Below are positions 5,679-40,223 of a stretch of 45,552 bases of DNA, in pieces (position 1 is the first letter of the stretch; each line of letters starts with the position of its first letter). The notes beneath the pieces were generated by a model, which was not told where the DNA came from, ran no database searches, and saw nothing but the letters and a program-made list of their open reading frames with translations. A program made the translations under genes and the position numbers. This stretch comes from Candidatus Scatosoma sp. (GTDB lineage Bacteria > Bacillota > Clostridia > Christensenellales > Borkfalkiaceae). The stretch covers positions 1 to 45,552 of the forward strand of contig JAZKXK010000086.1 in the NCBI GenBank assembly GCA_045611525.1, given 5' to 3'.

Positions 5679-8224
5679 TACTCGTCGGCAGGGTTCATCA
5701 TATCGAACGCCTTTATCAAGAAGCCCGATATCGGGAAGGACGCCTGCACGATAATGACGATTAACAGGATTTGAGGTAAGGAGAAGTTGACAAGCTCCCA
5801 GCCTTCGAACACGAAATTGCCCAAAATCGGCGCGGATACGACGATAAAGCACATAGCCGCCGCTACGACGAACAGCACCGCGCGCAGCGCGTTAAAGGGC
5901 TGACAAATTCGATACAGCATCACCAAACCGCAGAAGGTCAAGGCAATCATCATAAGCCCTTGGTATTCCAAGGTTTCCACGCCGTTTGCGTCCATAAACC
6001 CAAAGGTGGACGAAAGGGAAGTGTTATGCATACAGAACAAGGTCAAAATGCCAAGCGCCATGGTAAACGCCCCCGGAATCGCCCTGCTTAGAACGTAGGG
6101 GATAAACTTGCCCTTAACGCGCGCCGTATTCGGCTGCAAGGAAAGCACCAAGGAGGGGATTGCGCTGATAAAGAACTCGTACATGAGCATATGGCTCGTT
6201 TCGAAGAAGTACTTATTCGAGAGGGCGATACACACCGTAGCAAGGGTGAGGATAAGCAGGGTTTTCATAATATACAGCGCGGACGAATCCTTGATGTTAT
6301 TGATAACCCGTCTGCCCTCGTTAACGATTTTGGGCATTGACCCGAAATTATTATCCTGCAAAACGAGGTTGGAAACGTTTCTCGCCGCCTCGCTGCCCGA
6401 GGCTACGGATACGGCGCAGTCCGCTTCCTTCATAGCCAAAATATCGTTTACGCCGTCCCCCGTCATCGCAACCGTATGCCCTGCCTTTTTGATAGAGCGT
6501 ATCAAGATTGCTTTTTGTTCGGGGGTAACCCGCCCAAATACCGTGTATTGATTTGCCGCCGTTTCCACTTCCAAATCGGACAAGCCCTCAAGGGAAATAA
6601 ACTGCGCGGCGTTTTGGATACCGGCTCTGCGGGCGACTTCGCTAACGGTTACGGGGTTGTCGCCCGAAATGACCTTGACGGCAACGTCGTTTTCTCTAAA
6701 CCATTTAATCGTTTGAATGGCGTCGGGACGGATATTGTCCGAAAGGGTGATAACGGCTACGGCGCGCAAGCCCGCGGGCAATTTATCACCTTGGATAGCC
6801 CCGCCTGCGTGCGCCAAAACCAGCACGCGCAAGCCCATTTGCGCGTATTGCTTGACAATCTTATCGATACGCACGGGTACGGGCTTTAACACGAATTCCG
6901 GCGCGCCAAGCACGTACGTACCCGCTTCTTCAAAGGTAACGGCGGAAAGCTTTCTCGCCGACGAGAAGGGCAGGGTCGCCATGGGTTGCAGCGCGGAAGA
7001 GTGTCCAAACCGTTCGTAAAGCGCAATCGAGGTTTGGTTGTTATCGTTCAAAGAGGCGAGCATAGAGCCTAAAATATCGTCCACGCCGAACTCGCCCGTG
7101 GCGTTGAGCAGGATACAATCGCTGACCTTCATACGCCCGTCCGTAATCGTACCCGTTTTATCGAGGCAGAGTACGTTGACGCGCGCCAGCATTTCAAGGG
7201 AGTACATATCCTGCACCAAGGTGTTGTACTTGGCAAGCCGTATCATACCCGTGGAAAGGGCAATCGTCGTCAAAAGGAGCAAGCCCGAGGGAATCATACC
7301 GATAACGACGGACGCGGTTTTTCTAATCGTTTCGCGCACGTCCTCGTTGCCCGCCATAAGGTTTTTCCAAAGCCCGCCGCTTGCTTGCAAATCCGCCCAG
7401 CTTCCGCCGATTTCCTTGTAGTTGGTAAAGAACATTAAAACGGCTACGGGGATAATGATAAAGCCGATAACGCGGATAAAGAGGGTGATAGAGTTCATAA
7501 TCTCCGAGTTGGGACGCTTATACTTCTTCGCCCTTGCCGTCAGCTTACTGATATAGGTATCCTCGCCGATTTTATCCACGCGCACGGCGATTTGACCGCT
7601 GGCGACGAACGAGCCTGCGTACAGCAAATCCCCGTCCTCTTTCTTAATGGGTACGGATTCGCCCGTGAGCAGGGATTCGTTCAGCTCCGCCATACCCTCT
7701 ACGGCAAAGCAGTCGGCGGGTACTTGCTGACCTGCGGAGAGGAGCAAAATATCGTCGATAACGATTTCCTCTACGGGAATTTCCACACGCTTGCCCCCGC
7801 GCACGACCTTGGCGGTGGGGGAGGAGAGAATGGACAGTTTATCCAGCTTTTTCTTCGCGCGGATTTCGAGTACGATGCTCACCATCGTATTGATGAGGAA
7901 GATAAATACGAATAAGTACTGCGAAAAGGGGGCGTTTGCAAGGAGCAGCGCAATCGCCGCAATCGCGCAAAGCAGGTTGAAGCCCGTGCAAAGATTGCCT
8001 ACGAAAATACTGCGGTAAGACTTAGAGTACTTTTTCCCCGATTTATTCACCAAGCCCTGTTCTACGCGTTCTTGCACCTGCGCGCGGGAAAGCCCCTCGC
8101 TTGCAAGGGCGTTAAAACGCTGAACGTCGGCTACGGGCGTAGGCGGTTTTTTCTTTTCTTTTTTCTTATGGAGCAGGGAGGCGAGCTTGCCTTCCTTTTC
8201 TTCGTGCTGTTCTTGGTTTTTCAT
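5678..8224 (-). CDS. Cation-transporting P-type ATPase (HAD-IC superfamily)
   Basis: Motifs LTGESVP, CLDKTGTITDG and MTGDGVNDILAMKEADCAV, with about 10 TM segments. Start moved to the ATG at 8224 (MKNQEQ...), which has AAGGAG upstream; the track start is 8260. Confidence 0.93.
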   Translation of the reverse strand: MKNQEQHEEKEGKLASLLHKKKEKKKPPTPVADVQRFNALASEGLSRAQVQERVEQGLVNKSGKKYSKSYRSIFVGNLCTGFNLLCAIAAIALLLANAPFSQYLFVFIFLINTMVSIVLEIRAKKKLDKLSILSSPTAKVVRGGKRVEIPVEEIVIDDILLLSAGQQVPADCFAVEGMAELNESLLTGESVPIKKEDGDLLYAGSFVASGQIAVRVDKIGEDTYISKLTARAKKYKRPNSEIMNSITLFIRVIGFIIIPVAVLMFFTNYKEIGGSWADLQASGGLWKNLMAGNEDVRETIRKTASVVIGMIPSGLLLLTTIALSTGMIRLAKYNTLVQDMYSLEMLARVNVLCLDKTGTITDGRMKVSDCILLNATGEFGVDDILGSMLASLNDNNQTSIALYERFGHSSALQPMATLPFSSARKLSAVTFEEAGTYVLGAPEFVLKPVPVRIDKIVKQYAQMGLRVLVLAHAGGAIQGDKLPAGLRAVAVITLSDNIRPDAIQTIKWFRENDVAVKVISGDNPVTVSEVARRAGIQNAAQFISLEGLSDLEVETAANQYTVFGRVTPEQKAILIRSIKKAGHTVAMTGDGVNDILAMKEADCAVSVASGSEAARNVSNLVLQDNNFGSMPKIVNEGRRVINNIKDSSALYIMKTLLILTLATVCIALSNKYFFETSHMLMYEFFISAIPSLVLSLQPNTARVKGKFIPYVLSRAIPGAFTMALGILTLFCMHNTSLSSTFGFMDANGVETLEYQGLMMIALTFCGLVMLYRICQPFNALRAVLFVVAAAMCFIVVSAPILGNFVFEGWELVNFSLPQILLIVIIVQASFPISGFLIKAFDMMNPADE

Positions 8225-25867: not shown

Positions 25868-25937
25868 AAAAAAAATTCTAAAAAATTTAAAAAAATTTTA
25901 AAAAACCTATTGACAAACGCTGATTTTATGCTATAAT
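25868..25937 (+). promoter_or_regulatory. Strong-looking promoter with phased upstream A-tracts
   Basis: A-tracts start at 25868, 25880, 25889 and 25900. TTGACA (25910-25915), 16-nt spacer, TGcTATAAT (25929-25937). Confidence 0.6.
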
Positions 25938-25943
25938 AAAGGT

Positions 25944-26675
25944 ACAAAAGAAAGAAAGCAACAAAAAATGTTAATTTCTTTCATATGATAAGGGGTAAAA
26001 ACCGATGAACTGATAAGGGGGAGCTGGTGAGCTCAAGGTCGCCGTAGGGACACGGCAGAAAAACTAAAAAAGGAGGGTACGAAAAGCGATGATTCCTTCC
26101 CACAGTGAGGCGGACGCCTAATAAACACGATTACACCCATTCACGAAAGAACCGTGAGCGAGGCAATGGGGAGTTGACGAATTCCCGGTAGGCACTCGAC
26201 AAGCCGCAGGCAGGTGAAAGCGTGAATGAACAGTAGGCTAACGGAAAGGATTTGACGAAATTCAAGAAGAAGCCAAAGAATGCGGGAGAAACCGCAAGAA
26301 CGAAAAGCGGAGGTACACGGGAATGATTTGTGTAACTTCAAGAAAAACCGATACGAAAGAGGATACTCCAACGTACAGGTAAACCCCTAACGACGGGACG
26401 TCGTAAGGACAATTTGTTAAAGGAGGTACGAGGGAAATGATTTTATTCCATTCGGCAAGAAGGTACTTTAACAAAGAAGACAAAGCGAGGTAAAATCCAA
26501 TGAACCAAGCAAGTGAGGAATGCAAGTAAATACAATCCGTAAAAGGTAAGAGCGCGAAAAGATACGGCGCATTGAAATTGAGTTCAAAAAGAAACGGATT
26601 CAACGCAAAAGTGCATTCTTAAAACTGAATAACGAAGATAATTCTCCTGTCAGGTTGGCAGGAGATTATTTTTTC
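25944..26675 (+). ncRNA. Candidate large (~730 nt) purine-rich non-coding RNA, unclassified
   Basis: Bounded by its own promoter and terminator. No + strand ORF of 60 aa or more. Contains internal repeat modules and multiple local hairpins. 5' end estimated from the -10 box. Confidence 0.5.
26643..26675 (+). terminator. Intrinsic terminator of the non-coding unit
   Basis: TCTCCTG(tc)-aggtt-(gg)CAGGAGA followed by TTATTTTTT. Confidence 0.7.
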
Positions 26676-26678
26676 AAG

Positions 26679-26708
26679 TTGACAACACGCCCGTCCGCGT
26701 GCTATAAT
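26679..26708 (+). promoter_or_regulatory. Promoter of the sbcD/sbcC-like operon
   Basis: TTGACA (26679), 18-nt spacer, TGcTATAAT (-10 at 26703-26708). Confidence 0.55.
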
Positions 26709-26725
26709 AGAAAAAAGGAGTTTTT

Positions 26726-40146: not shown

Positions 40147-40223
40147 GTACTCGTAGCTCAGCTGGATAGAGCACAGGCCTCCGACGCCTGGTGTCGTTGG
40201 TTCGAATCCAATCGGGTACGCCA
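40147..40223 (+). tRNA. tRNA-Arg (anticodon CCG), CCA encoded
   Basis: Manual cloverleaf. Acceptor GTACTCG/CGGGTAC (one G-U), D-arm GCTC-AGCTGGATA-GAGC, anticodon stem CAGGC/GCCTG with loop CT-CCG-AC, T-arm GTTGG-TTCGAAT-CCAAT, discriminator G, CCA. Confidence 0.92.

Follow-up and report, generated by a model that had tools for sequence, protein, structure and literature searches.

A structured RNA with putative mini-cistrons at an autonomous locus of Candidatus Scatosoma and related gut Clostridia

The DNA examined here is a 45,552-nucleotide contig of Candidatus Scatosoma sp. (JAZKXK010000086.1 of assembly GCA_045611525.1), referred to below, at its full length, as the window. Between an MreB-like gene and sbcD it carries on its + strand (25868-26675) a transcription unit of about 0.73 kb, which had been picked out from the DNA letters as a candidate large non-coding RNA (ncRNA) without an open reading frame (ORF). 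We compared this element with its homologs and found, between one promoter and one terminator in every full-length copy, five units made of a Shine-Dalgarno (SD) sequence and an ATG, here called ORF0 to ORF4, within an RNA that has covarying helices. As far as sequence comparison can tell, the element is most likely best described as a structured RNA that is also translated, not as a pure ncRNA.

A scan for promoters and terminators found the unit to be self-contained. Phased A/T tracts resembling an UP element (25868-25905; direct repeats with 20 nt spacing) lie 5' of the -35 hexamer, and their consensus, AAAAAATTTTTCAAAAACC, is kept in nearly all copies. They are followed by a sigma-70-type promoter (25910-25937) in which TTGACA at 25910, a 16 nt spacer and TGcTATAAT give 12 of 12 consensus positions together with a TG-extended -10. 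The position of the -10 places the predicted 5' end of the RNA at about 25944-25946. At the other end stands an intrinsic terminator (26643-26675), with a stem of 10 bp and 5 GC pairs (26643-26665) and then a U-run. Purines make up 65.8% of the sense strand between 25945 and 26642, compared with 53.1% in the whole window, which bears out the two-thirds first estimated by eye. The promoter of sbcD (26679-26708) starts 4 nt past the U-run of the element's terminator and also matches the extended -10 consensus at 12 of 12 positions; the elements of both promoters were found at the positions first proposed for them. The gene is probably strongly expressed.

Copies of the element were gathered with the downstream SbcD-like protein as a handle, by a genome scan and from contigs encoding SbcD relatives. 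Further copies came from scanning metagenomes for the 31-nt block that is best conserved, and one contig was reached through a spurious antisense "protein". This gave 19 copies, 18 of them full length, all hosted by Candidatus Scatosoma or Clostridia metagenome-assembled genomes or found in gut metagenomes. The element is kept over SbcD identities from 91% down to 64%. In the DNA around sbcD, which is what was searched at these loci, no copy was found in L008-L011, L013, L014 and L029-L031, where SbcD is at most 62% identical, or in L003, where it is 70% identical. The promoter is near-invariant in 17 of the 18 copies that cover the 5' end. The exception is L018, a metagenome contig with a coverage of about 1x, in which unrelated sequence (600-690) replaces the promoter and the 5' part of the element, probably through chimeric assembly or a rearrangement.

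The structure of the RNA is real. Its predicted fold has a minimum free energy (MFE) of -198.5 kcal/mol, compared with -155.0 ± 5.7 kcal/mol in shuffled sequence (z = -7.64), and RNAalifold, run on 9 and on 18 copies, gives the same helices as the single-sequence MFE fold. Covariation was counted over 68 curated pairs in 12 helices in an 18-sequence alignment (A4). In this alignment 96.6% of the cells are paired, as against 37-48% when the partners are slid by 1-3 columns. Both-sided changes occur at 16 pairs, as against 4-7 in the slid controls and 6.9 ± 1.8 in shuffled ones, and a count of 16 was reached in 0 of 500 shuffles. The covariation is concentrated in helix P3, the hairpin at 26386-26408, helices H8 and H11, and the terminator, whose stem has both-sided changes at 5 of 9 pairs across the copies.

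From the 5' end, the first helix is P1 (25950-25982), a terminal hairpin seen in the MFE fold and by RNAalifold, in which GAAAGAAA and UUUCUUUC enclose AACA/UGUU; the inner helix is invariant and the outer one is 91.7% paired. P2 (GAGCU-GGUG-AGCUC, 26021-26034) was misaligned by MAFFT and was therefore folded copy by copy, which showed that all 19 copies have a hairpin at the same position, built from about nine different stem sequences. P3 (GCCGU-AGGGAC-ACGGC, 26041-26056) is 100% paired, with both-sided changes at three of its five pairs, and its loop holds an invariant AGGGA. The hairpin at 26386-26408 is 97.6% paired, has both-sided changes at four of seven pairs, and often carries a GNRA-type loop (GGGA, GUGA, GAGA). 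The 3' domain is closed by H8, formed by GAGGAAUGCA (26515-26524) and UGCAUUCUU (26612-26620). Inside it lie H9 (AUCCGU 26535-26540 with ACGGAU 26594-26599), H10 (26552-26570) and H11 (26573-26586), all of them found by RNAalifold and in the MFE fold. In L017, H8 has three compensatory changes in alignment A3, two of which are scored in A4, and one pair of H11 has four double changes. The covarying domains P2, P3 and the 3' domain (about 110 nt) lie outside the ORFs, which suggests that they have a role at the RNA level.

Other helices change on one side or hardly at all. The AGGC-loop-GCCU hairpin at 26108-26119 shows one-sided (wobble) changes only. Helix 7, between UUUGUUAAAG (26413-26422) and CUUUAACAAA (26466-26475), surrounds SD3 and the start of ORF3. 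It is 98% paired, and all its changes are from A-U to G-U. GGAGGG of SD1 (26072-26077) can pair with CCUUCC (26095-26100). The invariance or A-U to G-U changes of SD1:CCUUCC, helix 7 and H9 are consistent with pairing and do not prove it. All the hairpins that had been listed by eye exist. Those at 26041-26056 and 26386-26408 have compensatory changes, while that at 26108-26119 has not, and those at 26141-26157 and 26168-26186 belong to an insert present in some copies only. P5 (UGCGG-GAGAAA-CCGCA, 26281-26296), 5' of SD2, marks a site where most copies have a GC-rich hairpin of differing sequence and orientation (CCGC..GCGG, CCGU..ACGG, CGCGG..CCGCG). A mutually exclusive GCGG/CCGC/GCGG switch had been proposed at 26282-26310. 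Its first two members are this position-conserved hairpin, whereas the third GCGG occurs only in the window's own sequence and is absent from L001, L002, L020 and L021, so a conserved switch is not supported.

The motif GGAGG(G)TAC-N-ATGATT, reported in the original prediction as an internal repeat at 26072, 26309 and 26422, has no other match on either strand of the 45.5 kb window. Read as sequence, these modules are the SD and putative start codons of mini-ORFs. The mini-ORFs were followed in 19 copies for ORF0 to ORF2 and in 18 for ORF3 and ORF4. The first is a minigene (25990-26013) with an SD-like AAGGGG, 9 nt and then ATG AAC TGA (26005-26013). In all 19 copies it keeps the pattern of an SD-like run, CC[ACG]ATG, one or two codons and a stop, and its 2- and 3-codon forms differ by exactly 3 nt. 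SD1 (GGAGGG, 26072-26077) precedes ORF1 (MIPSHSEADA, 26089-26121), which has 10 codons in 19 of 19 copies, the consensus MIPS[HQ]xEAxA and a TAA or TGA stop. SD2 (GGAGG, 26309-26313) is followed by the 19 codons of ORF2 (MICVTSRKTDTKEDTPTYR, 26323-26382), with the consensus M[IT]CVTSRK...(D/E)(D/G)TPTY(R/T) and TAA, TGA or TAG as the stop. The third unit (26413-26493, counted with helix 7) comprises SD3 (GGAGG, 26422-26426) and the 18 codons of ORF3 (MILFHSARRYFNKEDKAR, 26437-26493; consensus Mxxxxxx[KR]RYF[NS]KE[DE]K[AE]R). The fourth SD (GAGG, 26487-26490) overlaps the ORF3 stop and precedes ORF4 (MNQASEECK, 26500-26529), of 9 codons, in which the SD and ATGAAC are conserved and the consensus is MNxxxEEC[KR].

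Several features of these units point to translation. All five ATGs lie 8-12 nt from an SD-like run in every copy. SD1 to SD3 have a median of 9 of 12 matches to the canonical Firmicute anti-SD, in runs of 8-10, and are as strong as or stronger than the SDs of real genes in the window. The ATG of ORF2 is in phase with a conserved TAC codon in 19 of 19 copies, at a distance of 18, 17, 13, 11 or 9 codons, and that of ORF3 is in phase with RYF in 18 of 18, at 8 or 5 codons. Deletions of 1, 3, 5, 7 and 10 codons leave these two frames in phase, while the lengths of adjacent spacers differ by 1-3 nt and the untranslated spacer from SD3 to its ATG drifts between 8 and 11 nt. ORF1, ORF2 and ORF3 contain no in-frame stops, as against 5 and 18, 14 and 11, and 3 and 26, respectively, in their other two frames. 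ORF0 to ORF3 never gain an in-frame stop in any copy that covers them, and the stop codons vary in identity (TAA, TGA, TAG) and are fixed in position.

At the level of the peptides the picture is different. Nei-Gojobori (NG86) ratios of nonsynonymous to synonymous differences (pN/pS) were 0.56 for ORF1, 0.60 for ORF2 and 0.76 for ORF3, and 1.07 for codons 2-8 of ORF3; the peptide sequences appear almost unconstrained. Codon-level purifying selection was accordingly discarded as proof of coding. Since the NG86 test is uninformative or negative, the coding case rests on phase, stops and starts. Selection appears to keep the start, stop and phase of ORF0, ORF2 and ORF3 and hardly their amino acids. 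These three are probably translated, with selection acting on translation and not on the peptide; ORF1 is ambiguous as a translated cistron. The statement that the unit has no ORF stands for long frames, the longest stop-free stretch on the + strand of the unit being 46 codons, and fails for the five conserved mini-ORFs. A 3-nt pattern of conservation, which had been named as an argument against an ncRNA, is present in part, as phase, start and stop kept through in-frame deletions, and it occurs alongside covarying pairs.

A number of observations weigh against translation or against reading too much into the signals described above. The in-phase indels represent only about 5-7 independent events, and the phase counts overstate independence because the copies are phylogenetically related. 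The spacing of 12 nt from SD1 to its ATG is long, and the pN/pS of 0.60 for ORF2 is matched by one control frame at 0.55. RNA-level elements can account for much of what looks like codon conservation. The sites at which ORF1 varies coincide exactly with the 4-nt linker and with the tetraloop of the hairpin at 26108-26119. In ORF3 the RYFNK codons form a strand of helix 7 and the final codons make up SD4, in ORF2 the TP codons pair with SD2, and in ORF4 the EEC codons are the 5' strand of H8. The frame of ORF4 is broken or divergent in L004, L016 and L017, and H8 is kept by compensatory changes while ORF4 is broken. Because of these breaks, and because H8 explains its conservation, ORF4 is doubtful as a cistron. 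The promoter, too, may be less exceptional than it looks: near-consensus promoters may be common in the Candidatus Scatosoma-like clade, which weakens the case for that of the element. Comparable promoters, TTGACTTTT-N-TGGTATAAT, were seen for the uvrD-fusion genes of relatives.

The element also contains repeats beyond the SD-ATG modules. The resemblance noted between the segments at 26243 and 26319 amounts to 77% over 31 nt, and the module recurs a third time at 26431. ORF0 and ORF4 have paralogous start regions (25994-26010 and 26489-26505; GGTAAAAACCGATGAAC and GGTAAAATCCAATGAAC) that are 88% identical, and ORF2 and ORF3 look like duplicates. This suggests that the RNA became longer as SD-ATG modules were duplicated. 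A variable insert domain of about 150 nt (26122-26275) holds two GACG-tetraloop hairpins (about 26168-26186 and 26248-26263); the MFE fold includes the first of them. A degenerate version of the ORF2/3 start module (26241-26271) also lies in the insert. The insert is present only in the window, L001, L002, L020, L021 and the distant L017, and is absent from intermediate copies. GGTAC, a motif that includes the self-complementary GUAC, is found five times (25941, 26076, 26312, 26425 and 26462), as against 0.46 expected, and a count of five was reached in 0 of 2000 dinucleotide shuffles. These sites fall at the predicted 5' end, after each of SD1 to SD3 and inside ORF3.

We searched for relatives among known RNA families. 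At the gathering threshold, a scan of the whole window with the covariance models of Rfam 15 returned a tRNA only; this tRNA-Arg (anticodon CCG, 40147-40223) is the sole RNA gene found in the window by Rfam or ARAGORN. A permissive scan of the region alone, up to E = 10, gave chance-level matches to unrelated small families (best E = 0.97), and a scan of six homologous loci gave none. Because no Rfam model matches in the window, the region or these six loci, the element is not OLE, GOLLD, ROOL, HEARO or raiA as those families are defined; the original prediction had likewise left it unassigned to the first four. The gene oapA is the defining genomic neighbor of OLE RNA. It does not lie directly downstream here, nor is it among the neighbors. 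Upstream these are MreB-like, RuvX or hydrolase genes, and on the downstream side SbcD, SipL or the UvrD-exonuclease fusion; the gene context is thus unlike that of OLE, as first noted. A CsrB/RsmZ-type sponge for CsrA was considered and ruled out, since GGA (17 seen, 18.6 ± 3.3 expected) and AGGA (6 seen, 7.4 expected) are not enriched in the RNA. The literature was also searched for comparable large RNAs, and no equivalent came up.

With the large ornate RNAs OLE, GOLLD, ROOL, HEARO/omega-RNA and raiA the element shares a size of 0.6-0.8 kb, a stand-alone unit, an origin in anaerobic Bacillota, covarying helices and GNRA-type loops. It differs from them in that no covariance model matches it even at E <= 10, its phylogenetic range is very narrow, it has conserved mini-ORFs that look translated, and its surroundings lack oapA, tRNA/phage or IS605-family neighbors. 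Its conserved helices, moreover, make up about 136 of about 700 nt (about 20%), the remainder being A-rich, and this too counts against the likeness. Of the original proposal, the conserved autonomous unit and its real covarying structure are upheld, but its reading as a large ncRNA is not supported in view of the in-phase mini-ORFs and the modest share of helices.

RNAIII, at about 0.5 kb, is comparable in size to the element. Dual-function small RNAs (for reviews see PMC12310071 and PMC12612679) such as S. aureus RNAIII/hld, B. subtilis SR1/SR1P and SgrS/SgrT resemble it in their autonomous promoter and terminator, multi-hairpin RNA and embedded small ORF; they differ in having one ORF, a conserved peptide and defined base-pairing seeds. 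The present RNA has five mini-cistrons with unconstrained peptides, and no target-pairing region was identified within the 45 kb window. Of the features of the dual-function class, autonomy is present here and translation is indicated by conservation of SD, ATG, phase and stop only.

A second comparison is the yrzI/spyTA operon of B. subtilis, a polycistronic small-peptide mRNA with an exceptionally strong SD that makes 11 of 12 pairs to 16S rRNA and at which a bound ribosome blocks RNase J1 (PMC12067863). It too is a Firmicute transcript, with species of 0.5-0.8 kb, several very small ORFs and a terminator hairpin, and one of its ORFs, of 17 aa, was shown to be translated (PMC12067863). Several small ORFs on one transcript, each with an SD, are likewise found here, in the form of the five units. 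Purifying selection on the peptides, in contrast, is not, pN/pS being near neutral. The yrzI/spyTA peptides have 38, 49, 17 and 52 aa, are conserved and form a toxin-antitoxin pair, whereas those of the element have 2-19 codons and are near-neutral; in a comparison by description, the large covarying domains outside the ORFs also set the element apart.

The ermC, cat and trp leaders and the lambda bar minigenes are cases in which translation matters rather than its product. With this class of leader peptides, upstream ORFs and minigenes (for minigenes see PMC2490762) the element shares SDs that pair with downstream ORF segments and, in ORF0, an ORF of 2-3 codons with a good SD. It differs in having no regulated downstream cistron on the same transcript, as the unit has a terminator of its own and separate promoters serve the genes downstream. 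By analogy, its closest kin would be dual-function RNAs or polycistronic small-peptide mRNAs of the yrzI type, with SDs and ORFs coupled much as in leader peptides. The general kind is already known; what would be new is a family, confined to one clade, in which the covarying architecture of an ncRNA is joined to five mini-cistrons that are conserved in phase and unconstrained in sequence.

We lean, by a little, towards a structured RNA whose mini-cistrons are translated. A pure structured ncRNA, in which the fold acts, the GGAGG and AUG motifs are helix strands or sites for the ribosome, its 30S subunit or a protein, and the mini-ORFs are not productively translated, would account for the covarying helices and the strong MFE z-score, for the presence of SD1, SD2 and the SD3 region in predicted helices, and for ORF4, which H8 explains. 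It would also fit the near-neutral peptides and a 34-nt SD1-ORF1 block that is invariant in 19 of 19 copies, synonymous sites included. What it does not explain is why ORF2 and ORF3 hold their phase through codon deletions next to spacers that shift by 1-3 nt, why in-frame stops are missing and common in the other frames, and why, in each copy, all five ATGs are spaced from an SD-like run as functional starts would be. The low share of conserved helices and the lack of an Rfam match also speak against it, and we consider it unlikely, though by no means negligible.

The opposite extreme is an ordinary small-protein operon, whose function would lie wholly in two or three micro-proteins (ORF2, ORF3 and perhaps ORF1), with the hairpins as mRNA stabilizers or intercistronic structures. 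The conserved SD, ATG and stop, the in-frame indels, the conserved (D/E)TPTY at the C-terminus of ORF2 and RYF.KE.K.R in ORF3, the paralog-like relation of these two ORFs and the precedent of the yrzI operon (PMC12067863) all agree with it. We nevertheless regard it as very unlikely: pN/pS is near neutral, the conserved residues fall on RNA helices or on the next SD, the covarying 3' domain of about 110 nt together with P2 and P3 lies outside any ORF, and ORF0, having only 2-3 codons, cannot encode a functional protein.

A further alternative links the element to its neighbors. As a cis-acting leader or attenuator of the repair cluster downstream (the UvrD-exonuclease fusion, SbcD and SbcC), it would control read-through of the terminator by translation of a leader peptide. 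In most loci it does lie upstream of uvrD/sbcD/sbcC on the same strand, and its mini-ORFs pair with their own SDs as leader peptides might. The terminator, however, is strong, the GCGG/CCGC/GCGG switch is not conserved, and no conserved antiterminator is seen in the consensus or MFE folds, which were not searched systematically for one. In 8 of the 11 loci examined, the next gene has a near-consensus promoter of its own beyond the terminator. The neighbors vary as well. Upstream are Ppx-Maf-MreB, RuvX/DUF1292 or a hydrolase, and downstream either SbcD directly or a UvrD-DEDD-exonuclease fusion and then SbcD. An extra 646 aa gene or a VanZ gene also occurs downstream. Other genes intervene before the repair genes in L025 and L028, and unrelated ones follow in L016 (SipL-like) and L017 (a convergent ECF-S transporter gene). 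Given the downstream promoters and variable context, an attenuator of the repair operon was ruled out as a candidate, and a leader function is highly improbable. Nor did the conserved 31-nt pattern match anything in IMG/VR, or blastn find a match in phage and plasmid collections, which rules out a mobile-element or phage origin. Because of the changing neighbors, the separate downstream promoters and these negative searches, the locus is an autonomous gene of narrow phylogenetic range, neither a leader nor a mobile element. The original view of a complete autonomous unit is thereby confirmed by its consensus promoter, A-tracts and terminator, kept in 19 copies among changing neighbors.

Some observations concern the neighbors themselves. 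In most relatives a UvrD-type helicase fusion of about 900 aa stands between the element and sbcD (for example L005 2138-4954, L012 2213-4936 and L024 7293-9962), with a DEDD (RNase T-like) exonuclease inserted within the helicase C-terminal domain. The window (26676-26725) and its closest relatives L001, L002 and L021 have no uvrD fusion, and sbcD follows the element directly. The distant relative L030, without an element near sbcD, has a Wadjet-like JetC/JetD pair (1-2245) and a RelB/PIN toxin-antitoxin pair (6012-6685).

To an antisense protein-coding gene or a decayed pseudogene we give next to no credence: the pyrimidine-rich antisense strand does have long stop-free stretches (a 113 aa ORF) and one public contig has a 168 aa gene call there (L020 346-852, protein P0001), but the open stretches differ between copies in position and length (83-231 aa), the only match among 5.8 billion proteins is P0001 itself, the promoter and terminator are conserved on the + strand, and covarying helices and conservation over SbcD identities from 91% to 64% are incompatible with decay. 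Because the antisense strand is pyrimidine-rich, the 168 aa ORF of L020 is spurious; used as a search handle, the antisense ORF gained only one extra contig.

For a structured, translated RNA the following course of events may be envisaged. Transcription would start from the consensus extended -10 promoter with its A-tract, UP-like element and end at the element's own terminator. The RNA folds into at least 12 conserved helices and carries five conserved SD-AUG mini-cistrons. Its very strong SDs, with 8-10 consecutive anti-SD matches, and the 5' hairpin would recruit ribosomes, and the loaded ribosomes might shield the A-rich, weakly structured RNA from 5'-to-3' decay, as with yrzI and with B. 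subtilis hbs, for which such shielding has also been shown (PMC12067863). Each strong SD is predicted to lie in or beside a helix with a segment of its own mini-ORF (SD1:CCUUCC, SD2:CUCC and helix 7 around SD3 and its AUG). Because the strong SDs pair in this way with segments inside their own mini-ORFs, translation and RNA folding may be coupled, with the transit of ribosomes tying the folding of the SD-containing helices to translation. Ribosome loading and translation would most likely be what matters, and not, or not only, the peptides. Any output in trans could be carried by P2/P3 and the 3' domain, or by the micro-peptides; we hold any specific downstream function to be far less certain than a translated structured RNA.

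More speculatively, the element might represent a new class of ribosome-operated regulatory RNA: an abundant RNA with five mini-cistrons that serve as switches and not as genes, and that reports or buffers translational capacity in trans. Ribosome loading and transit would then open the SD:anti-SD-like helices. This opening would uncover the invariant CU-rich element CCUUCCC together with the GUAC motifs, and would determine how long the structured P2/P3 and 3' domains last. We consider this quite unlikely.

The practical reach of the family is narrow for now, because it is limited to uncultured and little-known Clostridia of the gut, namely Candidatus Scatosoma and its relatives in ruminants and other animals. 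If the element is indeed a structured RNA that is translated, a conserved RNA of the size of the enigmatic large bacterial ncRNAs would blur the line between coding and non-coding, and would carry a warning for ncRNA pipelines that use an ORF-length cut-off or the absence of ORFs. Its frames would be selected to be read while their products are near-neutral, a natural case, outside a leader context, in which translation counts for more than the protein.

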